From IMG/VR virus record IMGVR_UViG_3300045988_141143: a stretch of DNA of 64,000 bases. One strand, written 5' to 3'. The notes beneath the pieces are model-generated. The model was given only the letters and a program-made list of their open reading frames with translations, was not told where the DNA came from and searched no databases. Below are positions 13,880-63,419 of this stretch, one piece after another. Both the position numbers and the translations under genes were made by a program. The first letter of the stretch is position 1. Each line of letters starts with the position of its first letter. This DNA is from a virus.

Positions 13880-14128
13880 CTAAGACATTTTCTTCTCTAC
13901 GATAGCTGTCACATCAGACACAAGCTGTAAGTCTTTTGCCTCTTCTGGCGAAATCTTGATATGGAACATGGTTTCGGTCTGAAGAACGAGGTCGAGAAAG
14001 TCAATAGACTCAAGAGCAAGATCATCACGCAGGTTAGCGCTGTCGGTCACTTCTGCTGTCGATGCCCAAGGTGTGCGCAGGCCTTCAACGATATTGAACA
14101 CCCGCTGACGTATATCTTCTTTGTTCAT
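13880..14128 (-). CDS. Acyl carrier protein
   Basis: 82 aa, acidic. 'DDLALESIDFLDLV' matches the phosphopantetheine-attachment region (DSL to ESI). Start overlaps the KAS stop (ATGA). Confidence 0.6.
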   Translation of the reverse strand: MNKEDIRQRVFNIVEGLRTPWASTAEVTDSANLRDDLALESIDFLDLVLQTETMFHIKISPEEAKDLQLVSDVTAIVEKKMS

Positions 14129-15339
14129 GATGGTTGATATTTAGAGATGATGAATGATGAGTTGGTGCCTCCGAAGCCAAAGGCATTGCAGAGGATATGG
14201 TGTGCTGAGTACTCGCGTGACTGCATGACGAGATTGAGTTTGGGAAAAGCATTCTCGGCTGTGGTAGCCGCACCGAAGACAGTGTCTGTGTTGAGCATCA
14301 TGGATGCTTGAACGGCCTGCGATACACCAGCCATCCAGCACTCGTGCCCCGTCATGCCCTTGGTGGCTACGATATAAGGGCTCTCGGGGAATACCTTTCC
14401 GATGGCTTCTGCCTCTGCAGCATCGCCCAGCTCTGTACCTGTGGCATGGGCAAGGAGTACATCTATCATTCCTGCATCGAGTCCTGCCGATTCTATGGCC
14501 TTAATCATTGCCACTTCTTCCTGATAAGCATCCGGGGTACAGATGTTGGTGCCGTTGGTGGAGAAGCCGCAGCCGGAAAGTTCTGCCACGGGCGAGACTT
14601 CATAATCCTCGAAACGCAAGCTGTCGGAAGGCTCAAGAATGACACAGGCTGCACCACCCGAAGGAGCAAGACCATTGCGGCCTTTGCCGAAGGGCTGCAC
14701 CTTGTCGGGCGAGAAAACGCCCATGGCATCAAACGACAGCATGGAGAAGGGACCTGTCTCCTGTGCGCCAACGACAATCACCATGTCGGTTTGGCGCGTA
14801 TCAAGAAGCATCTTGGCAAGACCGATGGCATGACCTCCTCCGGCACAAGCCCCGCTGACGGTAAGCGAAAGTCCTTTCAGTCCGTAGATAGAGGCGAGAC
14901 TCATGCTGACGGTGGAATTGAGTGTACGGAACACTGCGCCTGCCCCTAAACGTCGGGTGTCGCGCTGTGTAATGGCAGTTGTCATTGCCTGATAGTTGTC
15001 TCCAGCCGTAGTGTCGTTGCTGACGATGACCGATACATTGTGAGACTGCAAGAACTCGGGAAGAATATTGGCTTCCATCAGAGCCTCGTTGACGGCAGAT
15101 AAGGAATATAGGGTCGGTTCGGAAAGACATTGCCGTTGAGCCCTGGTGAGTTCGGATAGCTTCCAAGGGTTCGGGTCATTTATCTTTCCGCACAGGTCGG
15201 ACTGATAACCTTTCTCGCTACGTGCGGGGTCGTGGTGAAGACCGCACTCTCCATACGCCAGCTTCTGTGCGACGGAAAAGGTATCGTTGCCAAGACAGGA
15301 AACGATACCTGTGCCTGTGATTAATATTTTTCTATCCAT
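14125..15339 (-). CDS. Beta-ketoacyl-ACP synthase (KAS I/II, FabF/FabB-like)
   Basis: Active-site Cys in 'VSGACAGGGHAIG'. His motifs 'LAHATGTELGD' and 'KGMTGHECWMAG'. C-terminal 'FGFGGTNSSFII'. Confidence 0.75.
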   Translation of the reverse strand: MDRKILITGTGIVSCLGNDTFSVAQKLAYGECGLHHDPARSEKGYQSDLCGKINDPNPWKLSELTRAQRQCLSEPTLYSLSAVNEALMEANILPEFLQSHNVSVIVSNDTTAGDNYQAMTTAITQRDTRRLGAGAVFRTLNSTVSMSLASIYGLKGLSLTVSGACAGGGHAIGLAKMLLDTRQTDMVIVVGAQETGPFSMLSFDAMGVFSPDKVQPFGKGRNGLAPSGGAACVILEPSDSLRFEDYEVSPVAELSGCGFSTNGTNICTPDAYQEEVAMIKAIESAGLDAGMIDVLLAHATGTELGDAAEAEAIGKVFPESPYIVATKGMTGHECWMAGVSQAVQASMMLNTDTVFGAATTAENAFPKLNLVMQSREYSAHHILCNAFGFGGTNSSFIISKYQPS

Positions 15340-21173: not shown

Positions 21174-22967
21174 TTACTCCTGTTCCTGCTTCTTGACGCC
21201 TGTCTTCGAGTTGTCGAGGGTGGTGAGCACCTCACGGTCTATCTGCCATTCGAGGTGTGTGTCCCATTCATTGACATCGTCGATTACCTCCAAGGCGCGG
21301 AGCATGAGCTGCTGCAATGGGGCAAACTGTATCTGCTTGACGAGGAAACGCTCACGGAGGTCGGTGCCGCCCGATGAGGTTGCGTCGCCAGGGGTGTTGC
21401 CGATGAGCTTGGAGTCGAGACCCATGGCGAAGAAGATGATGCTCGTAATCTCCTGCAGCTCGGTCTTCTCGGCTTGCGCTTGCGAGTTGGCCTTGCTCTC
21501 TATCTCCACAATCTCCCATGCCTTGTGCTCCTTGCCGTCGGCGCCGGTGAACACGGCAGAGATGAGCGCCTGACCTGCATTGTCGGGATTGGAGAGCCAC
21601 GTGTTGATGTCGCTGAACACTTCCTGCTGAAGCTGCGCCATGGTCTTGGTCTTCTTGTCGCCCTGCTGGGTGTAGAGGTTCTTGAGATATTCCTGGTGAA
21701 TGTAGATGACGCGACCGATGATGTTGGAGTTGCGCTTACGGGTGAGTCGGTCGTCGACAATGGTGAAGGCATACTCGTAGATGCTTCCGGCAAAGATGGA
21801 ATGCCAGAGGGCATCGGCATAGTAGGGACCGCCATAGTCGCGTGGCGACATGATGAAGCGGGTGGGGCGGTCCTTGCGGCTTACCCGCTGCTGACGGGCA
21901 CGGCGCACGGCTGCCTGGAGGTCTTTCACTGCCGACACGGTGGGAAGATAGGGCACGGCGGCGATGCTCTTGTCGAGGTCGGCGAACTGGGCGGTGCGGT
22001 CTTGCGTGGGGTCGAGCCACTGGTTCGACACGTAGGCATAATTGATGCGATAGTTGGTGTCCTGTCGCTCCAGTCGGGTGGTGAAGATGCTGCGGTGTTT
22101 CAGTCCTACGACCTTGGGGGTCCACTGGCTGGTGGGTACCGGCTTGCCATCGTCGGAGAGTTGCCGCTGGTTGAGTTGCAGCTCGACGAAGCACTGCGAC
22201 ATGAGCGACATGTCGCCCGCCATGTTGAGGAAGGTCTGCATCAGGTCGTTGTCCTTCATGAATTTCTGCACCTCGCGGTTGGTCTGTTCCCACTTGGCGA
22301 GGGCATCCTTCAGTGCTTTCATCTCATCGCTGTCCTTTGGCTGGCCTTCGGTCTGCTGACTGACGGAATGCAGAGGGTCGTCGGGGTCGCCGCTGACGCC
22401 GTTCTGTTGTTGTGCCTGACGTTCTGCTGCCTCCTGTGCCTTGAGGTCGGCTATCTGTCCGCGGAGCAGTGTGCCAGCCGATGCGTAGGGGATGTATTTC
22501 TCGGTGATGTTGCCGCCTACGTACTGGGTGTAGTGGTATTTGGGCGAGGGTCCGTGGCCTACGAGTATCTTCTTGATGAAGTCGACGCCGGCAGCGGTGA
22601 AGGGCGACATCCGTGAGAGAATCCAGACGAGGTTGGGCAGTCGGTTGCCCACGCCCCATTCCATGTAGCCCAGTCCGGGTGTTCCCACGCCGTTGGGCTT
22701 GGCCTTGTTCTCGCCGCCGCTGGAGGCGAAGATGGTGGAAATCTGTCGTCGTGCTCCCGATGAGGTAGTCGAGCTGCCCTGCGCTGTCATGCCGGCTGTC
22801 TCGAAGAGCATGGAGCGGACGTAATCGTTCCATGAGAAGACTTGTGCGCCGCTGTTGGGATTGATGAAAGCAGAGGGCGACACGGCCACATATCCATCGC
22901 GCTTCAGCTCCTCACTACGATCTTGGAACTGCTGTAAGTTGGTAACTCTGTTCTTGTTGCGTGACAT
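21174..22967 (-). CDS. Large hypothetical structural protein (597 aa)
   Basis: Intact ORF preceded by a duplicated promoter element. No motif identified. Confidence 0.35.
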   Translation of the reverse strand: MSRNKNRVTNLQQFQDRSEELKRDGYVAVSPSAFINPNSGAQVFSWNDYVRSMLFETAGMTAQGSSTTSSGARRQISTIFASSGGENKAKPNGVGTPGLGYMEWGVGNRLPNLVWILSRMSPFTAAGVDFIKKILVGHGPSPKYHYTQYVGGNITEKYIPYASAGTLLRGQIADLKAQEAAERQAQQQNGVSGDPDDPLHSVSQQTEGQPKDSDEMKALKDALAKWEQTNREVQKFMKDNDLMQTFLNMAGDMSLMSQCFVELQLNQRQLSDDGKPVPTSQWTPKVVGLKHRSIFTTRLERQDTNYRINYAYVSNQWLDPTQDRTAQFADLDKSIAAVPYLPTVSAVKDLQAAVRRARQQRVSRKDRPTRFIMSPRDYGGPYYADALWHSIFAGSIYEYAFTIVDDRLTRKRNSNIIGRVIYIHQEYLKNLYTQQGDKKTKTMAQLQQEVFSDINTWLSNPDNAGQALISAVFTGADGKEHKAWEIVEIESKANSQAQAEKTELQEITSIIFFAMGLDSKLIGNTPGDATSSGGTDLRERFLVKQIQFAPLQQLMLRALEVIDDVNEWDTHLEWQIDREVLTTLDNSKTGVKKQEQE

Positions 22968-23007
22968 ATTCTGTTATCCTGTTTTTAGGGGTTGATGTAT
23001 GTTGTTG

Positions 23008-23085
23008 TTGCTTTTTTCGACTACAAATGTACTAAGAATTGTCTTAGTGGTACGGACATGAGTCAGAACTGCGAGAGCTGCACGG
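23008..23085. repeat. Copy A of a ~75-nt duplicated element (Bacteroides -7 box + relic of an MTase 3' end)
   Basis: 'ttgcttttttcgactacaaatgta' is identical at 23008-23031 and 24969-24992. Downstream ~45 nt are about 80% identical. Minus-strand reading gives TACATTTG (TAnnTTTG). Confidence 0.55.
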
Positions 23086-23326
23086 TGCGGTTGCCTCATT
23101 CGGCGCACCGCGTATGAGCGAAAAAACTGCGGTCCCGTCGGTTCTCCCTTCCCTTTTCCGTCCACTTCATAGAATTGGAAAGTTCGAGAGTGTTGGTAGT
23201 CTTCGGGAATGAAGCCGTGCGAGCCGCAGTTAATCTAACAATATGTTTCACGTTTTTGCATTATGGCCTATATTATGTTGTTGTCGGGGTGTTGTGTTGC
23301 GTCCGCCTACATATCGTAGTCGTACA

Positions 23327-24145
23327 TTATCGTTTGATATTCCACATGTGCTCTGCCGGACCAACGAGCACGTCGATGTTTGCGCCCTGCTTCAGGGCCA
23401 CCGTCTCCACCCATTTAAGTTGAATAAACTGCTGTGGGTTAAGATTCATCTCGTTCATATACGCCTTGTCTGCCACAGCCTTTTGGCGTTCAGCCTTCTC
23501 GCGTGCCAACTGCACCTCATATTCACGTTCCTGCGTCTGCTTGGCCTGTACCATCTTTGCCGTGCGGTTCATTTCGGCAAGCTGTTCCTTGTTTGGGGTT
23601 GCCTTGCCGATGATAACGTCCTTGATGATGACGGGCATCGGCTTGTGCTTTGAGAGGGCAGCCACGTAATCCTGCATCTGCTTCAGAATCTTCTTGTCGA
23701 TGGTGCTCAATACCTGTCGGTTAGACATCAAATCGAATGGACTGTACTGCGAGATATGGTCTCTGATAAGATTGCAGAAATAGTTGTAGAGGTTGGTGTC
23801 AAACCAGTCGCGTCCATAGTTCTGCAACAGTATGGGAGACTTGCCTTGCTCCACCTGAGTGACTATGACAGAATGGAAGTCGAGTGGCGTGTTATCGTCG
23901 GAGAAGATGTCGTCAAGAACAACCTCGTGGCGTACAGGCACAATCTTGAATGTTTCAGAATGAGTACTCAGGGCACACCATGTCAAGCCACTCTGAACTG
24001 GGTCGTTGTCAACACCTCCGTGTCCGAAGAACCATGGTTTCTTTACCAACACGGTTTCCTCGTCAGCATCGGGCGACACAAAACAGCACGAGGATAACAT
24101 CACTACTGCGATAAGCGCAAAAAGAATTGAAAATAATTTTTTCAT
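23327..24145 (-). CDS. SPFH/band-7-like lipoprotein
   Basis: Signal peptide plus lipobox 'MKKLFSILFALIAVVMLSSC' (start chosen at 24145). C-terminal 'QLAREKAERQKAVADKAYMNEMNL' resembles SPFH/prohibitin repeats. Confidence 0.45.
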   Translation of the reverse strand: MKKLFSILFALIAVVMLSSCCFVSPDADEETVLVKKPWFFGHGGVDNDPVQSGLTWCALSTHSETFKIVPVRHEVVLDDIFSDDNTPLDFHSVIVTQVEQGKSPILLQNYGRDWFDTNLYNYFCNLIRDHISQYSPFDLMSNRQVLSTIDKKILKQMQDYVAALSKHKPMPVIIKDVIIGKATPNKEQLAEMNRTAKMVQAKQTQEREYEVQLAREKAERQKAVADKAYMNEMNLNPQQFIQLKWVETVALKQGANIDVLVGPAEHMWNIKR

Positions 24146-24287
24146 AATTGTTTTTTGTTTATATTGATTCATTAAAATCCTTATATATGACAATCGTACA
24201 TTGTCAATAGAGTGTCTGTAGGTATTCCAGTTCTTTCCAATTCTTTCAAAACTGGAAAGAACGGGAATGGCTATACACCCGCTGCCT

Positions 24288-24839
24288 TTACGACTCAATC
24301 TCGGGAGGGTTGCCACCAGGTTTCTGCTCGCCGCCTCCAGTGGTGCCGGAATCGCCCGTGCCGGGAGTTGCTGGAGCATCCGTTGCAGCATCGCCCACTC
24401 GCTTGAACGAGCCGTGCTGTGCGAAGGCGGCGGTGAACTTCTTGGAGAAGTCGATGGCTACGCCTGCGGTGAGGTCCTTTGTGGTGAGGTCGGCGGCGGT
24501 AATCTCTCGGTTCACGTCAACGTCCTCGCCTGCTGCCTTACGTGCTTCGAGCTTCGCCTTGAGCTGGCTCTGAGTGAGCGAACCGCTGACGGTAGGACGT
24601 ACCGTCATGCCCTCGGCAGACACCTGTACCTTGGTGCCCAGTGCCAACAGAAGCGGCAGCTTTTTCTCCAACTGCGTCATCACGGCCATTACGTCCGCTG
24701 CGCCTACTGTAGAGTCCTGCGCCATGTAGTCGCAAAATTCAGGGAATGACATCTGCTGCAAGTCAACGATCTGTGCGCTTGCAACCTTTTCTTTCGTGAA
24801 ATTATTCACACGAACTGCAATTCTTGTTTTGATTGCCAT
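24288..24839 (-). CDS. HU-family (Bacteroidales HU-like) DNA-binding protein
   Basis: 'MAIKTRIAVRVNNFT...VDLQQMSFPEFCDYMAQDSTVGAADVMAVMTQLEKKL' plus Gly-rich tail 'GGGEQKPGG'. Confidence 0.55.
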   Translation of the reverse strand: MAIKTRIAVRVNNFTKEKVASAQIVDLQQMSFPEFCDYMAQDSTVGAADVMAVMTQLEKKLPLLLALGTKVQVSAEGMTVRPTVSGSLTQSQLKAKLEARKAAGEDVDVNREITAADLTTKDLTAGVAIDFSKKFTAAFAQHGSFKRVGDAATDAPATPGTGDSGTTGGGEQKPGGNPPEIES

Positions 24840-24910
24840 AGGTTATTTTTTGTTTGGGCGTTAATACTTCCCTCTCTGTTTTTACCCGATTCCACAAAGA
24901 GGTTTTTTGC

Positions 24911-24967
24911 AATGTGCCGACACTTTTTATCGAATGTGCCGACACTTTTTGTCAAATGTGCCGACAC
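24911..24967. promoter_or_regulatory. Three direct repeats of AATGTGCCGACAC at exact 22-nt spacing (operator-like)
   Basis: Copies at 24911, 24933 and 24955. The core GTGCCGACAC is an imperfect palindrome. Lies between the -7 box (24985-24992) and the HU start (24839). Confidence 0.55.
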
Positions 24968-25045
24968 ATTGCTTTTTTCGACTACAAATGTAGGGAGAAA
25001 ATTTTGAGCGGTGCGGACATAAATTCAGAACAGCGTGAGCTGTGC
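24968..25045. repeat. Copy B of the ~75-nt duplicated element (overlaps the MTase 3' end)
   Basis: See copy A. This copy contains the real stop region of MTase 25025..25795. Confidence 0.55.
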
Positions 25046-25795
25046 TTGCTCCAACTTGATGCGCTTGCAAGCCTTGTCGTAATACTCCTTGTTGAGCTCA
25101 AAGCCGATGAAGTTGCGCTTCTCTTTTATACAAGCAATGGCGGTGGTGCCGCTGCCCATGCAGTTGTCTAATATGGTGTCGCCCTCGTTGGAGTAAGTAC
25201 GGATGAGGTACTGGATGAGAGCGACAGGCTTTTGAGTGGGGTGGAAGCTGTTGTGAATATCCCTCTGAAATAAGACAATATCGGTTGGATATTTTTCGTC
25301 GGTTATCATATCCTTCACTTTGCCATAATTTCCGTAACATCTGTTGGTTTGCTCTTTCTCTTGCTTTCCTCTGCTGTGATTGCGTTCATGTGGAAGACAT
25401 TTGCGCATTTGTGGATGATAGGTTGGCTGTCCGTCGTAGAAAACGGAAATCATCTCCGTTTGCTTTAGAGGCATCTTCTTTGTGTTCAAAAAGCCAGTTG
25501 TACGGCATTTATCCCACGTGATATTATAGCGCCACATCTTTTCATTGCTCATCATCAGTTTTGCCGTGAACATACCCTGTCCGAACAATATTATAGCCGC
25601 ATTGGGCTTACTGATACGAAGATATTGCTTCCATAAAGAATCAAGTGGAATAATACTATCCCATCCTCCTCCTTCGCTCTGCTTATTGAGGACACCATAC
25701 GGCAAATCGCACACAATGCAATCCACGCTTCCGTCTGGAATCCTTTTCATTCCTTCGAGGCAGTCTTCATTATATATTTTGTTCAGTTCTATCAT
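25025..25795 (-). CDS. DNA methyltransferase, beta-class N6-adenine/N4-cytosine type
   Basis: Motif IV 'CDLPYG' is N-terminal to the AdoMet motif 'DNCMGSGTTAIAC'. 'HPTQKPVAL' block present. Confidence 0.7.
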   Translation of the reverse strand: MIELNKIYNEDCLEGMKRIPDGSVDCIVCDLPYGVLNKQSEGGGWDSIIPLDSLWKQYLRISKPNAAIILFGQGMFTAKLMMSNEKMWRYNITWDKCRTTGFLNTKKMPLKQTEMISVFYDGQPTYHPQMRKCLPHERNHSRGKQEKEQTNRCYGNYGKVKDMITDEKYPTDIVLFQRDIHNSFHPTQKPVALIQYLIRTYSNEGDTILDNCMGSGTTAIACIKEKRNFIGFELNKEYYDKACKRIKLEQAQLTLF

Positions 25796-25802
25796 TGTCT
25801 TT

Positions 25803-26837
25803 TTACTTTTTCCTTATCTTTTCCATTTCCTCATTCTCCACCGTCAGGCGTTCCAGGTGCTCCAGCACGAGGGAATAGCTTTGGTTGTTCACCTGGTCCT
25901 CCGTCAGTCCGGCATACTTCTGCATGGTGGCGGTGGTGGCAGTGTAAATCTCCAAGGGCGTGGTGGGCTTCTGCGACTTGAGGGGCTGCACCTTGAACAC
26001 ATGACGATAACGATGAGCGAGGGTGTGCATCACGCCCGTCCACCAAAAGAGTATCACCTGCCATGCCGTTTCGGGAAAATCGCGGAAATAGGACTGGTTC
26101 GTCTCCCACTGGTTCAACTCGTAGTGGAAGTCGTGCTTCACCATGCCCGTGTTACTGTCCACATAGTCGGTCGTGCCGTTGAAGATGGTGGCGAGAAACA
26201 TCGTCCGGGCAGAACTCACGTTCTCCATCTGCCGCTGCATCTGCTCGTCGGTGAAAGTGCCGCGCTGCTGCATCTTCAAGAGGCTGTTGCTAAGTCGGGT
26301 GTAGGTCTGCATCATGTCGGAGGCGAAGCGATACTGCGCCCACGAGAATCCGTCGAGGTCGTTGGCAGGACCGCTGAACACCTTCTTGCGTCGCCACCAC
26401 GCGCGGCGTCGCCGGATGACAGGGTAGGGAAAACGGGTGAGGAAAGCACCGTTCTCGTTATCAAGCCAGTCGAGCAAGCCTGCTCCCTGAGCGATATACT
26501 CTGCCGACTTTCGGGCGTCGGTCTTTGCCTTGGGCGTCAGCCAATAGTTGATTTGCCACAGATACAGCGGAAAGGTGCCGCTGTCCTCGTCGTCCTGCAT
26601 ACGGCAGAGGTAATACTGCTCGCTGAGGTCGAGGCGAGTGTCGGGCGCTGCCACTATCTCCAAGCCCGACAGGGCAAAGAAGATCGCCACCTTCACATTG
26701 CGCATGTCGAAGGGGTGGTATCTGTCCTGCCGTTCCACCTGCTCACGTATCACGTCGGCTATCAGCTCCAACTGTTTCGTAGAGCAGAGGTTCCAGTGGC
26801 GGGGAAGATGTAAGTCTATTTTTTTTGGATTGTTCAT
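25803..26837 (-). CDS. Hypothetical phage protein (344 aa)
   Basis: Intact ORF. Arg/Trp-rich segment 'RRRRAWWRRKK'. Confidence 0.4.
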   Translation of the reverse strand: MNNPKKIDLHLPRHWNLCSTKQLELIADVIREQVERQDRYHPFDMRNVKVAIFFALSGLEIVAAPDTRLDLSEQYYLCRMQDDEDSGTFPLYLWQINYWLTPKAKTDARKSAEYIAQGAGLLDWLDNENGAFLTRFPYPVIRRRRAWWRRKKVFSGPANDLDGFSWAQYRFASDMMQTYTRLSNSLLKMQQRGTFTDEQMQRQMENVSSARTMFLATIFNGTTDYVDSNTGMVKHDFHYELNQWETNQSYFRDFPETAWQVILFWWTGVMHTLAHRYRHVFKVQPLKSQKPTTPLEIYTATTATMQKYAGLTEDQVNNQSYSLVLEHLERLTVENEEMEKIRKK

Positions 26838-42199: not shown

Positions 42200-45100
42200 T
42201 TAGCCCTTGCCTTTCATAAACTGGTTGGCTTTTGTCATGCTGTCATAAAGATTACCACGGCCATACATGTCTATCTTTGCGTAGATAGGTTCATTCAGTC
42301 GGTCGAGGAGGGTCTTGACGGCTTGCATGAGAGCGGCTTGGCTGGCTGTGTTGTTAGCGATTACATTGTTGGCCGCTGGTGCGCCCAACAGAAGATTACC
42401 ATTTTCTGCTGTAAAGCCCGCTGCTGCGTCCCCCATTGCGCTCGCAAGCTCGCCGACATTACCATTGTCAAATGCGCGTCTTGCTGCACGTCTGCCTGAA
42501 TAGTTGCTGTCGTAGTTGACGAGAGCCTTGAGGAGTGCCGGATTGTTCATCATCATGGCGTGTGTCGTCTCACGACCGATTACTATCTCGGGTCCATTCT
42601 CTGCTACAAGAGAAGGCTGGCCATTGATGGTAGTAGCCCTTGGAGTAGTTATCATTTGCACGCCAGTTTTTTGCCTGCCGTCATCCTCTGTTGCCCAATA
42701 AATATCACCATTGTCGGCTACAAATGGCTTCAGGTCTTGCACGTTACCGCTGTCATACGTAAGCATACCTGAAACGAGCTTCGTGTTTTTAGATACAGAA
42801 GAAGATTTCTTACTGCTGCTGCTGAAAGCCGAATTAAGTGCCCACTGAAGCAAGCCCATCAGAGTAGCCATCACTCCTGCTGCAGCAATAGGACCAGCAA
42901 TAGGACCTAAGAACTCAAAACACTTCGCCATTGCTCCCGCGATAGAGAATGTCACCTCTTGGTCGGTGCGGGCCGCGTCCGAGTTTGCCACATCCTGATT
43001 GTTCTGTTCTTTAGCTGCAAGATTGGTGGTCATAGCCGTCTGGGTCATATCAAGAATGGCATTCTGCGCTATCTCCGTACTCTTACTTTGCTCTTTATTG
43101 CCGGCATCGGTGATGTCAGTTATATTCTTGACACCTTGATGGGTTTCTTTCTCTCTATCCTTAGCTCCCTTTTTAACCTCTTTGCTGAGTTCTTTTTGAT
43201 GCTTCCTTTCTTTCTTGAGCTGCTTGGCTTTTTCCTTGTCGTCTCCAGTTTTCTTTGAAGAACCGCCAAGAGTGAAATTGGTATTCATCAAGTCACCCAC
43301 AAGGCTGCCTCCGATACCGGCTACGGCATCGGACAGAGTAGTACCACCTGTAATAGCACCAGCAACGGCTGTTCCCGCTTGAGAGGCTGTATCAATACCG
43401 TAAGTCTCCTTGTTATAATCATGGATAGTACCGTTTGGATGACGTTTCTTCCATGCAGCAGGAGGCTCAGTATTTGCAAGATTGTTGCCGTTGGCATCAA
43501 TATACTGACCTCCTACGACACGTACCCACATCGGGTTTTCAGCCGTGCCCAGGTTACGCCAATCCATATCAATGGTAGTAGCATTAGCATTAGCATTGGC
43601 TCTCGCTGCATCAATGCCAGGCTGTGCGTTTTTCTTGCCTTGTTTCGCTCCGGCATCATTGATGGCTTTCCACATTTGGGTGTTCACGTCATTTAGCGCC
43701 ATATTAGCCCACGACTCAATCATAGACTTCAGGGCATTCTTGATGCTCTCCTGTGCGCTTGATACGTCAGACTCCATCATGGCGAAAGCCTTGCCTACCT
43801 CTGCACCGAAGGTTTCAATAGGCTGTACGAGCTGCTGCATCTGCGAAAGGCGGTTCTTCATCGCCGTCGCCATTTGGTTGGCATAAGCAAGTTCGGCCTC
43901 CTGGCGAGCCTTATCCGCCTCGTCTACCAACTGCTTGTTACGAGAGTTCTTCAGACAGAAGGCATAGTAATCTTCTGCCAGCTGCATCTTCAGCTTCAGT
44001 AGTTCTACCTCTGGGTCAGCGGTAAGGTCGGCAAGACCGAGGTTGGAAAGAAGGTTGGTCCGCTTGCCGAAGAGAGAACTTTCCTGCTGCATCTTGCGCA
44101 GCTTTGCCTGCTGATCGAGATTGCGTTTGTTGTTTTTCCAAAGAAAATCAGAAATCTTCTTGGCTTCATCGTATTCTTTTTTCTGTGCAGCTGTATATTC
44201 ATCAACATATTGGATAAGCTTGTGATAGAATAGCTTTACATTCTGCTCAGTCTCGCCCATCAACGCAAGAAAGACAGAAGGCATCTGCATATAGTCTTTT
44301 CCAAATAAGAACTGAAGCAGCTTCTGCTTCTCCCCGTTTGTCTCAAAAAGTGCCGCCATTTGTGTGCGAGCCTTTTCCAAAACTTTTATAACATCAGCCC
44401 TATCTTTATTTAGCGTTTCAAGCGAAACGTCTGCAAAACGAGAATTTATTAATCCCAAGAAAGAATTTTGTTGAACTATGCCTGTGTAATCATGTTCAAG
44501 TAGCTCCTTCCGACGTTGCTCTATGCGTTTTTGAATCACATTGCTTGAATCGTTCTCTTTTGATGAAGCATTCAGCCACATTCGGTCAAGATAAGCACGG
44601 TCGCGTTCATCTGATTTATATCCGACAACTTGCCCTTTCTTAATTTTAGGCATTTGCTTTAATAAATCAGAACGAAGTTGTGCTACATTAGTATTCAATA
44701 TGGCATCCTCAAGCATACGAGACTGAGATTGTCCAAACTCATCGTCTTTTTCCTTGCGATATTTGTCTATTGATTTTTTAAATTTATCCCAAGTTTTATT
44801 TCCAAAGACAATAGACTGCTGCGCAGCTGCAAGGGCAGCATCCATTTGTATTTGAATGTCATTAACTGCCTGTTCTTGTAATTCTTTCTCTACACCCTTC
44901 TTTGAAAGATCCTCAACAGTAGCTGTCATTTGGCGCTTATAGAAATTCTTTATCTTCGTAATAAACTCAGATATGTTGTTGCGAGCATCATCTTCAGGAG
45001 TAGTTGTGTTACCTCCACCACCGTTGCCGCCATAAACTTTTTGACCTACAGCCATTCCATCTCCTACATCAAGTTTAGCCCCAAACTTTTTCCGTAAGGC

Positions 45101-48100
45101 TTCTTCTTGTGCGTTTATTTCATCCAGTCTTGACTGAGCCTTATCTCGCTCGCGTTTCGCAGCCGCACGTTGTCCTGCCTGTCCGATTGCACCCTGTGCC
45201 TGCCCTGGCATCATAGCACCACCAGAGGTCTGAATATATCTTCCATTAGGAGCGTTCACGTGTGTATTTGCATACGCATCTTCTTTTTTCTGCAAATCAA
45301 GAATAGCATCCACTTTCTCACGACCCAATTCTGCCAACTTAGAACGAGCGCCCTCAAGTTCGTAGTAATCTTGTAGACGTTGAAAGTTTTTCTCCCATGC
45401 CTTAGTGTTTTCCTTAACAACACCCGTCTCTGTGTTAATTTTAGCGTTGAGGTTAGGAATAGCGCCATTCAATTTATTCATAGCTTCGAGGCGAAGATTC
45501 ATTGACGCAGAAGTATCGTGCATAACATTATGCAGACGCTTCAACGATTCTTGTTCCTCCATAGCCTTACGCTTACCTTCTTCTTGTACTTCGTTAAGCA
45601 CGCGCTGTCCTGCGGATAAACCGTTCAAAGAGGAAGAATATTCGGCAAGTTTTACGACCAATATACCCAATAATCCAATTAATCCTCCCATAATACCCGC
45701 CTGCTTGGCAAACGACAAGCCATTAAATGCAGCTTTAGTTTTGGCAACAACAGCCCCCAGAGACAACATACCTCCCTCTAATCCCTGAACATAAGTAAGC
45801 AGTTTTGCAAAGCCACCCGCTAATCCTGCCATACTAATCATGGTGATCAACGTAGGAAGTATGCTCAGTAGCATCTTTATAGAGGCAAAGAGCAGCGCTA
45901 ACGCTACACGAACCTCTGTCATAAAACTCATACTGGTTGTAAGTTCCTTTACAACTTCAAACCAAGCTTTTGCTATATCACGAATAGGTCCCGAAGCCGC
46001 ACTTGAAGAAACAAACTGTTTTTCAAGAAGGTTGTTAGCCCTCTCCATATACGCGGCTGCAGTTTCCTGCTGCATATTATACTCAACCGTAACAGCAGAA
46101 CCTTCATTAAAAGCTTTATTAGACTCCTTTACCGCTTTAGTAAGCATACCATTCTTGGCAGCCATTGTTACCATAGTTTTTACCAAACGAGCGCCATCTG
46201 AGCCTAAGTCCTTAAATAAGCCATCAAGAGCAAAAAGGTTTTTAGTTTCGCCCATTCTGCGGAAAATGGTTAAGATTGCATCCATACCTCTTCCACTCTC
46301 GATCATCTTCTTCAAAGAACCAGAAGCTATACCGAGTGATTTTTCAATAGGGCTTGTACCTTTACGAAGCTCTACAACCAACTTTCCAAAAGCTGTTGCT
46401 GCAACTTCTGGCTCAAGGGCCATTGAGTCAACAGCCGCACCAAGAGCCAAAATATCTGGGGTTGTTAAAGCCGCCTGTTCGCCCAATGCAAGCATACGAT
46501 TAGAGAAATCCACAATCTTTCCGCTTGTCGCTGTAGATGTAGATGCCAGTCGGAAAATCGCAGAGCCTGTTTTCAGCATAGCCTGCTCCACTCCATATTT
46601 ATCCGCAAGACCCATCACCTCAGTAATCTTAGCAAGAGCCGTCAACGCTTCATCGCCCAAATCCTCTTTCAATGCGACGTTCACCTGGTCTGCGGCACGG
46701 ACGAAGCCAGCTAAATTTTGAGTTGTAACACCAAGTTTAGCTCCCGCATAGGCCAAGTTGTTCAGTTCTTCTATGCTTGTACGGGTATCGATTTTAGCAA
46801 GTTCCTTTGATAAATTTGCTACTTCGTCAGTTGTAGATAAAGCGACCTTACGAATATTAGTAAGCTGTTCGCTATACTTCATATTAAGACGAAACAAATC
46901 CATAAAGTACGTTTTAAGCTGATTGAACATCGCAAACAATCCGACATAAGCCGTGAGGTTCTTCAGTGCTGTCTGCCATGCGCTGCCATGCTTGTTGGCC
47001 GCACCCGTCGCCTCGTCGATGTTCTTCTTCAGCTCCTTCATCGACTTCTGCTTGTCGGCAAACTCCTTACTCTTGGTATTGATTTGGTTCAGTTCCTCTT
47101 CGAGTTGCTTGTAGGCACGGCGCAGTTCGTCGAGGGAGGCCTTACCCTGCTTGCTACGGGCGAGAATGTCGTTAAGGGCACTCTGCGACATACGGGTCCC
47201 CTTGAGGGTCTGTTCGAGCATGGAGTATTGGCGACGGAGGTCGGCCACATACTTGCTGCCAGCAGGGAGTTGCTGAATCTTCTGCTGTATCACTTCCATC
47301 GTGCGCTTGATGTCTTCGCCCGAAGCCTTGTTAGGTTCAGCCAATACCTGCTTCATCTGCTTCCAGCTCATTGATGCTTTCTGAGTCTTACCCGACACAG
47401 CCTCCAGCCGCTTCTCTATCTCCTGGAGCTCGCTGTTGTATTTTGCAATATCAGCCGAATTGCCTGTAGGTGTGTTGTCGCGAGCCTCAGTAAGCGTAGA
47501 CTTGGCTCGGCGCAAATCAGATGCTGAAGCGTTTTGACTGGTTACAGTCTGATGTGCCTCTGCCACGCCCATTTTGCCCTTGCGTCTGTCCTCCTCGGCT
47601 TCAAGTTGCTTCAATGTGGCGAGATTCTGCTGATAGGACGCATCCGATTTTTGCAGCGAACCTACGAGGTCACGCTGTTGTTTGATGGCCTTGTCGAGCC
47701 ATTGATCGGATTGGTTCTTTACATTATTCAAGCCATCGGCTATCTTGACATACTGACCTTCAATAAGGCGCATTTGATCGCCCACTTGCTTCATCTCGCT
47801 TCGTATCTGCTCTGCCTTCTTCAGGTCGGCATCCGAGCCGGTGAGCTTAGCAAGAGCCGACTTGCCCGAACCCATAGCACGACGCAGGTCACGAAGCTTA
47901 GTGTTGGTGAGGTCTTGCACCACCTCGCTCAATCGCTTCGTGTCCTCGATATTGTCACGCTGCACTTGCGACAACGCCTTCAATGTGCTCTCTGCCCTCT
48001 TACACTCAGCAGTGTTAGCCTGTCCTGCGGCAGTCATCTTCTGGATGTCGGCAGTATATTTCTGCACAAGATTGTCAATCTCTTCCAACACCTTCTTGGC

Positions 48101-48151
48101 TGTAGAGGCATTGGCCGTGATTACTACTTTTGCTAATTTTTGTGTTGCCAT
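42200..48151 (-). CDS. Tail tape measure protein (1983 aa)
   Basis: Long coiled coils. Core 'TSIEELNNLAYAGAKLGVTTQNLAGFVRAADQVNVALKEDLGDEALTALAKITEVMGL' resembles the TP901-type TMP domain. Hydrophobic segments and Gly-rich C-terminus. Confidence 0.65.
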   Translation of the reverse strand: MATQKLAKVVITANASTAKKVLEEIDNLVQKYTADIQKMTAAGQANTAECKRAESTLKALSQVQRDNIEDTKRLSEVVQDLTNTKLRDLRRAMGSGKSALAKLTGSDADLKKAEQIRSEMKQVGDQMRLIEGQYVKIADGLNNVKNQSDQWLDKAIKQQRDLVGSLQKSDASYQQNLATLKQLEAEEDRRKGKMGVAEAHQTVTSQNASASDLRRAKSTLTEARDNTPTGNSADIAKYNSELQEIEKRLEAVSGKTQKASMSWKQMKQVLAEPNKASGEDIKRTMEVIQQKIQQLPAGSKYVADLRRQYSMLEQTLKGTRMSQSALNDILARSKQGKASLDELRRAYKQLEEELNQINTKSKEFADKQKSMKELKKNIDEATGAANKHGSAWQTALKNLTAYVGLFAMFNQLKTYFMDLFRLNMKYSEQLTNIRKVALSTTDEVANLSKELAKIDTRTSIEELNNLAYAGAKLGVTTQNLAGFVRAADQVNVALKEDLGDEALTALAKITEVMGLADKYGVEQAMLKTGSAIFRLASTSTATSGKIVDFSNRMLALGEQAALTTPDILALGAAVDSMALEPEVAATAFGKLVVELRKGTSPIEKSLGIASGSLKKMIESGRGMDAILTIFRRMGETKNLFALDGLFKDLGSDGARLVKTMVTMAAKNGMLTKAVKESNKAFNEGSAVTVEYNMQQETAAAYMERANNLLEKQFVSSSAASGPIRDIAKAWFEVVKELTTSMSFMTEVRVALALLFASIKMLLSILPTLITMISMAGLAGGFAKLLTYVQGLEGGMLSLGAVVAKTKAAFNGLSFAKQAGIMGGLIGLLGILVVKLAEYSSSLNGLSAGQRVLNEVQEEGKRKAMEEQESLKRLHNVMHDTSASMNLRLEAMNKLNGAIPNLNAKINTETGVVKENTKAWEKNFQRLQDYYELEGARSKLAELGREKVDAILDLQKKEDAYANTHVNAPNGRYIQTSGGAMMPGQAQGAIGQAGQRAAAKRERDKAQSRLDEINAQEEALRKKFGAKLDVGDGMAVGQKVYGGNGGGGNTTTPEDDARNNISEFITKIKNFYKRQMTATVEDLSKKGVEKELQEQAVNDIQIQMDAALAAAQQSIVFGNKTWDKFKKSIDKYRKEKDDEFGQSQSRMLEDAILNTNVAQLRSDLLKQMPKIKKGQVVGYKSDERDRAYLDRMWLNASSKENDSSNVIQKRIEQRRKELLEHDYTGIVQQNSFLGLINSRFADVSLETLNKDRADVIKVLEKARTQMAALFETNGEKQKLLQFLFGKDYMQMPSVFLALMGETEQNVKLFYHKLIQYVDEYTAAQKKEYDEAKKISDFLWKNNKRNLDQQAKLRKMQQESSLFGKRTNLLSNLGLADLTADPEVELLKLKMQLAEDYYAFCLKNSRNKQLVDEADKARQEAELAYANQMATAMKNRLSQMQQLVQPIETFGAEVGKAFAMMESDVSSAQESIKNALKSMIESWANMALNDVNTQMWKAINDAGAKQGKKNAQPGIDAARANANANATTIDMDWRNLGTAENPMWVRVVGGQYIDANGNNLANTEPPAAWKKRHPNGTIHDYNKETYGIDTASQAGTAVAGAITGGTTLSDAVAGIGGSLVGDLMNTNFTLGGSSKKTGDDKEKAKQLKKERKHQKELSKEVKKGAKDREKETHQGVKNITDITDAGNKEQSKSTEIAQNAILDMTQTAMTTNLAAKEQNNQDVANSDAARTDQEVTFSIAGAMAKCFEFLGPIAGPIAAAGVMATLMGLLQWALNSAFSSSSKKSSSVSKNTKLVSGMLTYDSGNVQDLKPFVADNGDIYWATEDDGRQKTGVQMITTPRATTINGQPSLVAENGPEIVIGRETTHAMMMNNPALLKALVNYDSNYSGRRAARRAFDNGNVGELASAMGDAAAGFTAENGNLLLGAPAANNVIANNTASQAALMQAVKTLLDRLNEPIYAKIDMYGRGNLYDSMTKANQFMKGKG

Positions 48152-50096: not shown

Positions 50097-50900
50097 ATGA
50101 GTCAGATAACACAAGGCACATTGGCACGCATCGACAAATGGTTGGCGCAAGGCATCAGTATCGAGACGATGTTCCCGAACCTGGAGCAGCGCTATCGTAT
50201 GCAACTCTGTGCGGAATATTACAAGAGGTGGGTGCAGAACAAGGACATTGACCCTCGTACCACCTGTCGCAACATTGCCAGACGCGACTACGAGTTGTTT
50301 ATCAACCAGGCCGCGCAGGGCAACAAGGAGGCTGTGGCGATGATTCAGGCGCTGGGCATCACGGTGGATGACGAGGGCAATGTGAGAAATCGCACCATCA
50401 CGGAACTCAACAACGACGTGGCGGTGTGCAATCACATCATCCGCTTCTTCACCACCGACGAGAGTCCGCGCCACAAAGCCATGTACCTCAATTCGGCAGA
50501 ATGGTTGATACGCACGGGCAAGCAGCAGAACAACGACCGTGCCGTGGATAAGGGTATGCAGGCCTTGGCCAACATATACAGCAACTTCATCGAGGAGAAG
50601 GACGCTACGGACGAGATGCCGGACATGAGCCGCATTGCCATCACGCAGGACGTGAGCATCGTGAAGCGCGACCGCATCAACTACACCGAGGAGGAGAAGC
50701 TTCGTCTGGCCCGCAAGTATGGTCTTACGGCAAAGGATATGCGGGATATAGCCGAAGAGGAATCCCTGCAGGCTGTAGGCAAAGAGAATGAGCCCGACTA
50801 CTTCGAGTACATGGAGAAGAAAGACGAGGAGGAGGACGTGATTAGACACGGGTACATGAAAGAAAGCGAAATGACGGATTCCGAAACGACGGATGAGTGA
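50097..50900 (+). CDS. Hypothetical early protein (267 aa) with acidic C-terminus
   Basis: Coding-like composition. The opposite-strand ORF 50004..51011 is Leu/His-rich antisense-like. Confidence 0.4.
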   Translation: MSQITQGTLARIDKWLAQGISIETMFPNLEQRYRMQLCAEYYKRWVQNKDIDPRTTCRNIARRDYELFINQAAQGNKEAVAMIQALGITVDDEGNVRNRTITELNNDVAVCNHIIRFFTTDESPRHKAMYLNSAEWLIRTGKQQNNDRAVDKGMQALANIYSNFIEEKDATDEMPDMSRIAITQDVSIVKRDRINYTEEEKLRLARKYGLTAKDMRDIAEEESLQAVGKENEPDYFEYMEKKDEEEDVIRHGYMKESEMTDSETTDE

Positions 50901-50978
50901 AAACGAAACAGAAGTATCTGTTTGATGCAAACATAAGTATCTGTTTGATATAAACAATGGGCATCGTTTGAAAAACAA

Positions 50979-51080
50979 CTTGCCGACACTTTTCATCGAA
51001 TGTGCCGACACATTAAAACGAAGGTGTTAGCACTTTTTGCCAAAAGTGTTAGCACATTTTACCAAAAGTGTTAGCACATC
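50979..51080. promoter_or_regulatory. Five operator-like sites at strict 22-nt spacing (two GCCGACAC-type, three GTGTTAGCAC-type)
   Basis: 'gccgacac' at 50982 and 51004; 'gtgttagcac' at 51024, 51046 and 51068. Same motif family and orientation as the 24911-24967 array. Confidence 0.55.
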
Positions 51081-51193
51081 AAAAAAACGGAGGTTCAGTT
51101 GATTTCATCAAAAGAGTCGGCTGATTTCGCCAAAAGAGTCGAACCTCGGCAAATATATAGTGCATAAATGCGCTATAAAAACACTATAAAAAT

Positions 51194-52044
51194 ATGTTAA
51201 ACGAACAACTGCAGAAAAAGGTAAAACAGTCGATAAAACTCCTGCAGAGTGTGCAGAAGCGATACGACGGCGAGATAGAGATAGCCTACTCGGGCGGTAA
51301 GGACTCCGACGTGATCCTTCAGCTGGCGAAAGAGGCAGGCATCAAGTATCGGGCCATATACAAGAATACGACCATCGACCCGCCAGGCACGTTGGGGCAC
51401 GTCAGAGAAATGGGAGTGGAGATACTGCGGGCCAAGACATCCTTCTTTCATCTCGTGGCACAGAAAGGATTTCCATCTCGCTTTACTCGTTTCTGTTGTG
51501 AAGAACTGAAGGAATACAAGGTGCTCAACAAAAGTATTATCGGCGTGCGCAAGGCTGAGAGCCGGAAACGAAACGAAAGATACAACGAGCCGACAGAGTG
51601 CCGATACTTCGGAAAGAAGAAAGAGGAAAATCACGTAGAACAGATTTATCCTATTCTGGAATGGACCGATGAGGACGTGCGTGACTTCATCATAGACAGA
51701 AAGTTGAAACTCGCACCCATTTATTACAATTCGGGGGGCAAATCGACGTGTCGAAACGTCTTGGCTGTATGTGCTGTCCTCTTGCCTCAAGGCGCAAGCG
51801 CATTATCGAGTTTCAGAAATATCCCAAGATAGCAAAGGCTTATCTCCGTGCGGGGCAACGATTTATGGAAACGCATCCTGACAGCAAGGCGTGCCAGAGG
51901 TACGACAATGTTTACGAATGGTTCGTTCGCGACGTATTTTACAGCTCCAATGCAGATTGGAGCAAGGTAAGCACAGGGCTGTTCGGTAAGCCGGACTTCA
52001 AGAAATTCTTGGAGGACAAGTTCGGTATTGACTTGACATTATAA
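51194..52044 (+). CDS. PAPS-reductase-family (PP-loop) protein split by a 1-nt frameshift in a G6 tract
   Basis: 'IAYSGGKDSDVIL' PP-loop, 'RFCCEELK', 'IIGVRKAESRKRNE'. Conserved C-terminal 'RLGCMCCPL' continues in frame +2 after GGGGGG at 51733-51738. Reported ORFs 51194..51832 and 51748..52044. Confidence 0.55.
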
Positions 52045-62103: not shown

Positions 62104-63306
62104 TCAGTTCTCATTCTTCCTCTCCATATTCTCCTTGAACATTTCTCCGAAACCATCCCAATAATGAGCGTCCATCCATTCGGGCGAGGATAAAAACTGC
62201 TCATACATCATTGTCGCAGGTATCGTCCGTAGGTATTTCTCGCAAGCCTTAACGTCTTTGTCCCACAAATCCATCCGCTCCATTTCTATCTGAAAATACG
62301 TCTTGAGGAACATTGCCGCCTCATGTGTCGGTGGCAGGTCGAATTGAAGGAATAAGGCATTGTCGGAGTCGTTTGCCTTGAGGAACTTGCTCACGGCATC
62401 GTCCTTGAGGAAATAGCGGTCAGACACTTCCTCTTCGAGCACGTCTTCCAATCGGGTAAGCAGCTCGAAAGGTTCTGGGAACTGATAGTCGAATGCCACG
62501 TCTCGGCGCATGGAGAGGCAGAACACACGGTCGCGGTTTTGTGGCACACCGTAGTTCTTGGCGTTGAGTCGCGTCCAACGGCTCACATAGCCGAGCGACG
62601 AGAGTTTGTCGAGCCACTTCTGAAAGTCTGGCAAGAACTTCTGGCTTACCAGTGCCGCCACGTTCTCCTGCAAGAGATACTTCGGGCGAAGCACCTCCAC
62701 AGCATCCGCCACACGCCAAAGCAGTGCGCTTCGGGTGTCGCTGCCCTCCTGCAAGCCCATTTGCTTGCCCGCCTGACTGATGTCCTGGCAAGGCGAGGAA
62801 TAGGTGAAGAGGTCTACTTCGCGGCCTTCGAGCGAGCTTTCCACCTCGTGCCAGTCAATCTTGGTGATGTCGCCCAGGGCGCAGTCGGCAAACTGAGGGA
62901 AGACGAGGTTGTGCATCTGACAGGCGTATTTGTCGATGTCGCTCCATCCTATACATGTCCATCGGAAGTCGGGATGCCACTCGCGGAGCACATCGGCTGC
63001 CATAAGCTGCGAGTCGTAGCCGAAGAACGTGGTAAGGAATATCTTCTCCTCGTTCTTGTTGGCTGCGGTGGGCGGCAGGGCGGGTAATGTGTCTTCGAGG
63101 TCGTCGAAGAGCGAGAGTTGCTTTTGCTTACGAGGTTTGGGCGTAGGATAGAAAAGTTGCTCGTAGATGTGGGCCAACACGTCCACCACGATGCTGTTTC
63201 CGGCTTGCTTGTACTGCTGTGAGGCAGATATAGCCATGTCTTCGGGCTTGCCCTTGCCTTTCCAGTCGGGCAGACGTTCGGCTGCTTGAGCATTGCTGCT
63301 CTGCAT
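62104..63306 (-). CDS. C5-cytosine DNA methyltransferase core with non-canonical (circularly permuted) motif order
   Basis: Motif X 'QYKQAGNSIVVDVL' lies near the N-terminus. Then 'GWSDIDKYACQMHNLVFPQ...GDITKI' (II/III), 'SSPCQDIS' (IV), 'LLQENV' (VI), 'QNRDRVF' (VIII) and a TRD-start-like 'LEDVLEEEVSDRYFLKDDAVSKFLK'. Motif I is not clearly recognisable. The ORF table lists 62104..63348 from a GTG. Confidence 0.55.
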   Translation of the reverse strand: MQSSNAQAAERLPDWKGKGKPEDMAISASQQYKQAGNSIVVDVLAHIYEQLFYPTPKPRKQKQLSLFDDLEDTLPALPPTAANKNEEKIFLTTFFGYDSQLMAADVLREWHPDFRWTCIGWSDIDKYACQMHNLVFPQFADCALGDITKIDWHEVESSLEGREVDLFTYSSPCQDISQAGKQMGLQEGSDTRSALLWRVADAVEVLRPKYLLQENVAALVSQKFLPDFQKWLDKLSSLGYVSRWTRLNAKNYGVPQNRDRVFCLSMRRDVAFDYQFPEPFELLTRLEDVLEEEVSDRYFLKDDAVSKFLKANDSDNALFLQFDLPPTHEAAMFLKTYFQIEMERMDLWDKDVKACEKYLRTIPATMMYEQFLSSPEWMDAHYWDGFGEMFKENMERKNEN

Positions 63307-63314
63307 CGTGCCGA

Positions 63315-63419
63315 TTACATTGTCACGAACGCCATCAGACGAAAACACTCCTTGGGTGTGAGCTTGCGGATGGCATAGCTCTTGATGGTGCGGTCGGTGA
63401 AATTGAGTTTTGTAATCAT
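63315..63419 (-). CDS. 34-aa mini-ORF carrying a C5-MTase motif-IX-like peptide, out of frame with the MTase core
   Basis: 'MITKLNFTDRTIKSYAIRKLTPKECFRLMAFVTM*'. 'RKLTPKECFRLM(G)F' is the motif-IX consensus. The core continues in the +1 frame a few nt downstream. Confidence 0.4.
   Translation of the reverse strand: MITKLNFTDRTIKSYAIRKLTPKECFRLMAFVTM

Follow-up and report, generated by a model that had tools for sequence, protein, structure and literature searches.

A candidate HU promoter and the remnant of a Dam-like methylase gene, probably copied ahead of the portal gene in an accessory region of a gut phage genome

The DNA analysed here is a 64-kb window of the IMG/VR virus record IMGVR_UViG_3300045988_141143. 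It belongs to a tailed gut phage of ~100 kb whose host is a member of the Bacteroidota, probably Prevotella. All genes from ~50 kb down to ~4 kb lie on the minus strand, and we analyzed the stretch between two of them, p344 (344 amino acids (aa); 25803-26837, minus) and p597 (597 aa; 21174-22967, minus), in which a preliminary description had flagged a direct repeat of ~75 nucleotides (nt) bracketing an HU-like and an SPFH-like gene. Reading along the minus strand, p344 is followed by an N6_N4 DNA methyltransferase gene (25025-25795; Pfam PF01555, 3.7e-33; PHROG 67; PADLOC MTase_II), an intergenic stretch of 185 nt (24840-25024), and the gene for a 183-aa HU-HIG protein with a glycine-rich C-terminal tail (24288-24839; PF18291, 2e-8). 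Next come a hairpin with 34-bp arms (24209-24283), the gene for a 273-aa SPFH/Band_7 lipoprotein with a signal peptide and the lipobox LSSC (23327-24148; PF01145, 2.5e-13; PHROG 200 ‘lipoprotein’), and a 359-nt spacer (22968-23326) that leads to p597. Both domain assignments between the repeat copies held up, with PF18291 at 34.7 bits (curated cutoff 26.2) and PF01145 at 50.9 bits (cutoff 23.6); the HU-like protein scored below the cutoff of TIGR01201, and a search of the PDB with the SPFH protein gave a weak match to prohibitin.

The p597 product is probably the portal protein, encoded by a core gene. It is conserved in 139 viral contigs and matches the annotated portal of Polaribacter phage Leef_1 with 29% identity (tblastn, E = 3e-13). 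Named phage genomes in INPHARED include no relatives of the window, with distant matches only for the methylase and just the Polaribacter match for the portal. Our comparison material consists of related loci from IMG/VR, ENA and Logan, labelled L001 to L239, among which those with a portal at least 95% identical to that of the window make up the close clade.

The core of the repeat is a 24-mer, TACATTTGTAGTCGAAAAAAGCAA (minus strand), which is found exactly twice in the window, once upstream of the portal gene (copy A; 23008-23031) and once between the methylase and HU genes (copy B; 24969-24992), with starts 1961 nt apart. Searches for this 24-mer at up to three mismatches gave no match in 100 shuffles. 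The repeat extends over 52 nt at 81% identity, and with a single 1-nt indel the pair reaches ~23080 and ~25042 (~74-78 nt), with identity at 59 of 74 positions (80%). The direct repeat of ~75 nt at a distance of 1.96 kb is thus as originally described, as is the presence in both copies of a Bacteroidota-type -7 box, here within TACATTTG. The -7 promoter consensus of Bacteroidota is TAnnTTTG. In each copy, this box forms the downstream half of a longer element, TGTCCG-N21-TACATTTG (copy A, 23024-23058, minus; copy B, 24985-25019, minus, beginning 5 nt past the methylase stop), and the 24-mer is made up of the -7 box followed by another 16 nt.

This element defines a class. The motif TGTCC[C/G]-N21-TAnnTTT[G/A] has seven instances in the window, all intergenic and each facing a gene: six on the minus strand (50001, 27623, 25019, 23058, 12664 and 3137) and one on the plus strand (50035), with holin-like, endolysin, HU, portal and other genes behind them. 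Across 1.37 Mb of related loci, the gene strand has 150 matches to the class motif and the opposite strand none, with ~0 matches expected; these loci are akin to one another, so the 150 counts are not independent events. The spacer is 21 nt only. In its upstream half, 21 nt ahead of the -7 box, the motif has TGTCC[C/G] in place of the -33 TTTG that is usual in Bacteroidota. On the strength of this motif, we take the TGTCC-N21-TAnnTTTG elements to act as promoters.

Copy B adjoins the stop codon that actually ends the N6_N4 methylase gene, as had been noted, and its left part is made up of the last five methylase codons and the stop, CAGCTCACGCTGTTCTGA, which encode QLTLF* (25025-25042, minus). 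The resident gene, an orphan N6_N4 (beta-class) methylase with the tail …KRIKLEQAQLTLF*, is one allele of a slot that in sister genomes holds a D12/Dam-like gene (PF02086). In L001 and L003, the Dam-like gene sits in this same slot between p344 and HU and ends in …ERGNRTVQLTLF*. The 18 nt of CAGCTCACGCTGTTCTGA also end unrelated Dam-like alleles, and this joint is common to all the allelic combinations found: N6_N4 with HU1, Dam with HU1 (L133, L231), Dam with HU2 (L001, L003), and Dam with another HU promoter (L239). The sequence right after the methylase stop varies with the downstream module. From this pattern we infer that the shared 18-nt tail is the crossover joint at which methylase alleles were swapped.

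Downstream of the -7 box of copy B, and upstream of the HU start codon, lie three repeats of 22-nt period with the near-palindromic core GTGTCGGCAC (24911-24970, minus), putative operator or iteron sites that copy A does not have. A promoter with a near-identical 24-mer, together with the repeats and the leader, accompanies HU behind unrelated genes in L020, L036, L224-L227 and L230. Since the promoter travels with HU in these unrelated contexts, we take it as native to the HU module and copy A as the derived one. Separately, three of these loci contain HU pseudogene scars. In L020 (5339-5595), the promoter, three repeats and leader are fused straight to the HU-terminator hairpin, and in L226 and L227 they are fused to HU at about codon 104; the HU open reading frame (ORF) can thus be lost while its regulatory shell is kept.

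The left part of copy A had been read as ‘PHRAALAVLT’, a degenerate C-terminus of the resident methylase. That frame is off by one, and the frame aligned to the methylase stop reads E*GNRTVQLSQF*. It belongs to a 42-nt fossil of a methylase 3′ end (23063-23104, minus; AE*GNRTVQLSQF*) whose match is to the tail of the D12/Dam-like allele: the Dam-like genes in L001, L003 and L069 align with it at 93% identity across 43 nt. Similarly, over 98 nt copy A is 84-86% identical to the Dam-type copy B of L133, a metagenome contig that combines a Dam-like gene with a copy-B-type promoter and a window-type HU gene, versus 71% identical to the window’s own copy B. The two copies are therefore homologous junctions of a methylase 3′ end and a promoter, as first proposed, and it is the resident methylase as the source of copy A that these comparisons reject. 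Among 10 distinct sister sequences, the fossil is the most variable segment (12 of 42 columns, versus 23 of 225 in the spacer; Fisher p = 0.004), and its lesions vary by genome, with an internal TGA in the window and loss of the stop codon in L132. At the other end, the 24-mer stops at 23008, and no more than 2 nt separate it from the recombination junction with the portal leader. Copy A is fused at 23007/23008 to this leader, …CAGGATAACAGAAT-ATG, which other clades have too. Judged from these alignments, copy A is an ectopic partial copy, ~98 nt long (23008-23104), of a junction between a Dam-like 3′ end and the HU promoter.

We compared this arrangement with those in relatives. Between p344 and the portal gene, 80 related viral contigs have from ~220 nt to 4.6 kb of DNA with differing cargo, such as C5 methylase, RtcB-like, LemA-like and other genes; in one other clade, a methylase gene lies directly downstream of the portal gene. 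The full order of the window, N6_N4 methylase, promoter with repeats, HU1, hairpin, SPFH, terminator, fossil with promoter, and portal, recurs in L002, L004, L082, L130 and L134, and L133 has the same order with a Dam-like gene in place of N6_N4. In L001 and L003, a Dam-like gene is followed by a different promoter with its own repeats and HU2, and L239 has a Dam-like gene, another promoter with repeats, and an HU gene with another N-terminus; in all three, SPFH and then the fossil with its promoter precede the portal gene. L231 and L232 carry methylase, promoter with repeats, HU, a variant hairpin and portal, with no SPFH gene and no copy A. The refuting case named in the preliminary description, relatives that always carry the cassette with a single promoter copy, gave a mixed answer: some relatives have both cargo genes with copy A as the only copy of this sequence (L001, L003, L239), and others are without SPFH and copy A altogether (L231, L232). 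As a separate matter, we considered whether the sequence after the Dam-like gene in L001 and L003 is a deleted derivative of copy B, and ruled this out, as it is a proper class promoter, TGTCCC-N21-TAACTTTG, of the HU2 module.

The portal region of L231 and L232 is 96-97% identical to the window at the nucleotide level, and comparison with these two loci locates the edges of the variable unit. Homology is lost at 24311 and returns at 23006, no more than 2 nt from where copy A ends on its 3′ side. From these breakpoints, the unit that is present or absent comprises SPFH, the terminator, the fossil, copy A and a variant HU tail and hairpin, with HU itself kept. Across the related loci, moreover, HU, SPFH and methylase genes were exchanged independently of one another. 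SPFH is 91-92% identical at the nucleotide level in clades whose portal genes are 77% identical, and its homology stops exactly at the ends of the ORF. The G+C content at third codon positions (GC3) is 0.55-0.65 in accessory cargo versus 0.74-0.77 in flanking core genes, with SPFH at 0.62 and both portal and p344 at 0.77. PADLOC assigned no defence system to HU, SPFH or p344, and NCBIfam gave no match for SPFH, portal or p344.

Two folded elements flank the SPFH gene. The post-HU hairpin at 24209-24283 is stable (-32.6 kcal/mol, z = -5.6) and has no U tract; it has homologues in L033, L040, L045 and L020 and also lies upstream of SPFH in other clades, making it a shared module boundary. Downstream of SPFH, a long stem (23121-23231, minus; -36.1 kcal/mol, z = -2.2) closes just before six U residues (23121-23126), and 3 of 200 shuffles fold as well. 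This stem and U6 are probably the intrinsic terminator of the SPFH insert, as judged from folding, and copy A comes directly behind them. Folded whole, the 220-nt spacer is not unusually structured (z = -0.86), and only this terminator-like sub-segment stands out. Between the hairpin (24209) and the SPFH ATG (24148), we found no TGTCC-N21-TAnnTTTG and no clear TAnnTTTG that could serve SPFH as its own promoter. A search of Rfam over 22-26 kb returned as its sole match a spurious miRNA on the HU hairpin, on both strands.

Taken together, these data make it probable that the HU promoter and a fossil of a Dam-like gene were copied in front of the portal gene along with the insertion of SPFH. In this account, the stretch from p344 to the portal is a hypervariable accessory region in which single-gene modules (methylase, HU, SPFH) recombine at gene boundaries. 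Copy A would have come from a Dam-HU promoter junction of the kind preserved in L133, with the fossil as a recombination scar, and SPFH and the terminator would have come in with it. Genomes of the L231 type have no class promoter between HU and portal, and the portal gene is presumably therefore read from the HU promoter, with the polymerase passing the hairpin that has no U tract. The HU promoter and the portal gene of the window would be parted by SPFH and the terminator, and copy A would re-supply a promoter for the portal and the genes that follow. After the copying, the 42-nt fossil would have been decaying, and the resident methylase would have been swapped from Dam-like to N6_N4 by a crossover in the 18-nt QLTLF* tail. 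The homologies, junctions, promoter-motif statistics and presence/absence variants are direct observations; promoter and terminator activity, the order of events and the compensation rationale we infer from them.

Several points weigh against this account. Promoter and terminator function are read from motifs and folding. No donor with SPFH directly upstream of both a full Dam-like gene and this promoter was found among the searched relatives, and neither was a methylase gene directly upstream of the portal gene. In particular, in none of 44 loci is the portal gene immediately preceded by a full Dam-like gene; the Dam-like genes are found ahead of HU, just past the portal gene, or elsewhere. 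L231 and L232 differ from the window by replacement, with another HU C-tail and hairpin, and not by a clean insertion, and the direction of change may be either gain or loss of SPFH with copy A. Finally, the post-HU hairpin has no U tract and may permit read-through to SPFH and portal, in which case copy A would be less needed.

The preliminary description had offered another reading, in which a local duplication of the resident methylase end and promoter brackets a two-gene moron of HU and SPFH that was inserted, or can loop out, by recombination. We give this a small but real chance of being correct. Direct repeats with 24 nt of perfect identity do flank both genes and could support homologous deletion, and both genes are accessory and compositionally distinct. 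The part of the proposal that concerns accessory cargo accordingly stands, with low GC3 and variable presence. The single two-gene unit does not, since HU and SPFH differ in distribution and boundaries and the natural indel takes SPFH and copy A and leaves HU; moreover, the fossil is of the Dam type and the resident methylase is N6_N4. Excision likewise found no support: a pattern search of IMG/VR (2.9 M viral contigs) gave no match to a methylase-promoter-portal junction, and the seven metagenome loci with the 24-mer include no recombinant of this kind.

A second alternative, which we find improbable, is that gene conversion or selection keeps the two promoters identical for a shared factor, for instance through an initial-transcribed-sequence or regulator site in TAGTCGAAAAAAGCAA, and that the scar origin is secondary. 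Consistent with this idea, 10 distinct copy-A sequences show no variation in the 16 nt past the -7 box and do vary in the flanks, and copy-A haplotypes are mosaic with respect to copy B, with one (hapA1) sharing the -7 box and another (hapA2) the spacer. However, the HU promoters of other clades differ in this very stretch (TAGTCGGAAAAAGCA, TAGCCGAAAAAATCA, TACTCAAAAATTGCA), and L001, L003 and L239 keep copy A unchanged with no homologous copy B as a partner.

It is very improbable that the copies are simply unrelated members of one promoter class, alike through consensus and chance. Both do fit the class motif, which the window has seven times and the related loci 150 times, and because of this shared membership part of their similarity is consensus (13 specified positions). 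Beyond the consensus, however, the 16 nt past the -7 box are identical (24 of 24 positions overall) and are found in none of the other five class promoters of the window, and the coding-like segment upstream is also alike in both copies, its 42 nt in copy A being a 93% match to a methylase 3′ end. Portal genes of other clades also have the class architecture upstream, but with different spacer and leader sequences. A chimeric contig or other assembly artefact, for which there is nothing specific beyond the general fact that misassembly can create repeats, has a negligible chance of explaining the pair, as the two-copy arrangement recurs in independent assemblies (L002, L004, L082, L130, L131/L132 and L134) and is seen, with sequence polymorphisms, in more than 10 of them in all, from separate projects (IMG/VR, ENA, Logan).

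Returning to the HU module with copy A read as a displaced copy of its promoter, we found that the HU protein and the repeats in its leader vary together. The HU-HIG clade has a ‘G’ subclade, whose description the glycine-rich C-tail of the window protein fits (PMC5499826). A sequence search of the PDB with this protein gave no match, and an AlphaFold2 model from a shallow 40-sequence alignment reached a pLDDT of 35. Among 120 homologues (80-98% identical), variability is concentrated near the N-terminus, with a mean entropy of 0.65 bits at residues 5-23 versus 0.10 bits at residues 24-150. Across ~20 loci (codons 5-23 at 24771-24827 in the window; relatives L130, L133, L219-L225 and L228-L238), every N-terminal variant comes with a repeat core of its own, in 7-8 classes. 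Between the window and L130, for example, CG becomes TA in all three repeat cores, and the HU gene, otherwise almost identical, has 10 substitutions clustered in 22 nt of codons 12-19 and just two others over the 320 nt that follow.

We made blind predictions of the repeat cores from the HU segments, and one of four was correct as stated. A modular rule drawn up post hoc fits all classes. For the central core, NF or SI at HU residues 13-14 accompanies TCGG/TCGA and HL accompanies nTAG. For the outer core, Q at residue 23 goes with GTG..CAC, N with GG..CC, and A, T or S with GAG..CTG. This covariation suggests sequence-specific autoregulation, with the caveat that the HU segment and the repeats are physically linked. 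Burroughs et al. (PMC5499826) had considered a role as sequence-specific factors unlikely for HU-HIG proteins. We also considered the repeat cores as target sites of the methylases, and ruled this out, as the same cores occur beside different methylase alleles.

Related units recur at a distance. A compound array of 22-23-nt units occupies 50906-51141, in the intergenic region between a 267-aa gene (50097-50900, plus) and a PAPS-reductase-like gene (51194-51832, plus). Its units are two of AGTATCTGTTTGAT, one of AACAATGGGCATCGTT, two of TGCCGACAC, three of GTGTTAGCAC, and one each of GAGTCGGCTGA and GAGTCGAACC, which together represent nearly every type of HU-leader core. The array is alike in genomes with different HU alleles, and could be an origin or control region. 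The layout has likenesses to plasmid Rep/iteron systems with autoregulated initiators, namely three evenly spaced near-palindromic sites between a promoter and the gene for a DNA-binding protein, and a larger array of related sites elsewhere, here at 50906-51141. It differs in that the sites here are putative and the protein is an HU-HIG protein, from a clade inferred to be unlikely to bind sequence-specifically (PMC5499826).

The methylases of this region share a further feature in their tails. The consensus for binding the beta sliding clamp is QL(S/D)LF (PMC9690074), and both QLTLF* of the N6_N4 methylase and QL[ST]LF* of the Dam-like proteins place a sequence of this kind at the extreme C-terminus, with QLELF* or QLKLF* in distant Dam-like proteins. 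Tails of the QxxLF type end 90 of 120 N6_N4 database homologues, and others have hexapeptide-like tails (QLKLQL or QPKLDL). A third family is represented by a C5 methylase ORF (62104-63348, minus), which has KQLSLFDD after a motif-X-like segment (residue 63, numbered on 62104-63306); with this segment and QLSLF preceding motif I, the ORF looks like a fusion or permutation. In all, QL[ST]LF is found in three unrelated methylase families (N6_N4, D12/Dam-like and C5), at the C-terminus in two of them, with Dam-like loci including L001, L003, L069 and L087-L129. Our literature search found no report tying bacterial or phage methylases to the sliding clamp.

We tentatively combine these observations in one reading, to which we give somewhat less than an even chance: the HU-HIG protein would be a sequence-specific binder that autoregulates by reading the repeat cores with residues 5-23, copy A would be freed from this control, the 50906-51141 array would be a second target, and the QLxLF methylases would be tethered to the host clamp. 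Exchange would then move the repeats and the HU N-terminal segment together, as a cassette of matched specificity, and copy A would be an HU promoter released from HU control. By analogy, the QLxLF tether of the methylases would be a bacterial counterpart of DNMT1-PCNA, and its coding sequence would also provide the microhomology for allele exchange.

Some further observations concern the same genes and the genome at large. The N6_N4 methylase of the window and the alleles of L033-L080, which lie downstream of the portal gene there, share ~33 N-terminal and ~75 C-terminal residues and have unrelated middles, for an overall identity of 39-74%, which looks like swapping of target-recognition domains; L054 has two N6_N4 genes in tandem. 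Across the predicted SPFH terminator runs an open frame of ~65 codons (23096-23251, minus), with a GTG start in the window, where it is interrupted. In the sisters L003, L082, L130 and L133, which have AGA for TGA, this frame ends in …ERGNRAVQLSLF* and would bear a clamp-motif tail; it is probably non-coding. Elsewhere in the window, a 1983-aa ORF (42200-48151, minus; PhageMin_Tail) encodes the tape-measure protein, which points to a ~100-kb long-tailed phage and not to a crAss-like podovirus. Within the structural region, a beta-ketoacyl synthase (KAS) gene (14125-15339, minus; Pfam ketoacyl-synt 7.7e-26 plus the C-terminal domain) is an auxiliary metabolic gene of an uncommon type.

The account of copy A as a displaced HU promoter can be set beside known systems of phage gene exchange. 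In T4-type phages, promoter/stem-loop (PeSL) cassettes bound indels and replacements in hyperplastic regions (Arbiol et al. 2010, PMC2839356; Comeau et al. 2014, PMC4122927). As in those phages, short conserved promoter and terminator sequences here border non-essential genes and act as exchange points for sequences that are otherwise unrelated: the swaps of methylase and HU alleles break at the joint of tail and promoter, the SPFH indel ends by copy A, and the hairpin lies at module borders. In contrast to PeSLs, the promoter is of the Bacteroidota type TGTCC-N21-TAnnTTTG and not a sigma-70 early promoter, promoter and hairpin are separate and form no composite, and the extended identity is confined to two copies, though the class is repeated seven times in the window. 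Two more differences are that one joint lies inside a coding tail (QLTLF*), and that no loop-out deletions were found in IMG/VR or the 24-mer metagenome loci and no minicircles were observed.

Lambdoid morons are extra genes with their own transcription signals and a deviant composition (Juhala et al. 2000; Hendrix et al. 2000). SPFH resembles them in being inserted between genes that are adjacent in relatives (HU and portal in L231 and L232), in having a predicted terminator of its own, and in its deviant GC3. It differs in having no recognisable promoter of its own, with the outward promoter at its downstream edge serving the next core gene. Lambdoid morons are, moreover, expressed independently of the phage programme, for instance from a prophage, whereas the window phage is not shown to be temperate. 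The boundary or ‘linker’ sequences of lambdoid phages, part of the modular theory of Susskind & Botstein, are short conserved sequences at gene boundaries that mark crossovers. Here, too, a boundary sequence is common to non-homologous alleles, but the shared stretch consists of the final 18 nt in each of two unrelated methylase genes and may be conserved for protein function, as a clamp-binding-like motif, and not as a dedicated linker.

Overall, our comparisons identify the locus as a mosaic accessory hot spot with shuffling at promoter junctions, similar to PeSLs and lambdoid morons, ordinary in kind and unusually well resolved. The covariation of HU with its repeats and the clamp-motif tails are leads more interesting than the flagged repeat. 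If confirmed, both could matter more than the repeat itself, the first as a possible recognition code in an HU-HIG protein, from a clade previously thought not to be sequence-specific, and the second as clamp-binding-like tails on phage orphan methylases. The repeat, for its part, is a clear natural case of the shuffling of phage accessory genes, with crossovers at a promoter and in the final 18 nt of a gene; a copy of a promoter seems to have come along, so that the essential portal gene stays expressed after a terminator-bearing insertion. It extends the picture drawn from PeSLs and morons to uncharacterised ~100-kb phages of gut Bacteroidota, and it defines a promoter class of these phages that is of use for annotation and engineering.

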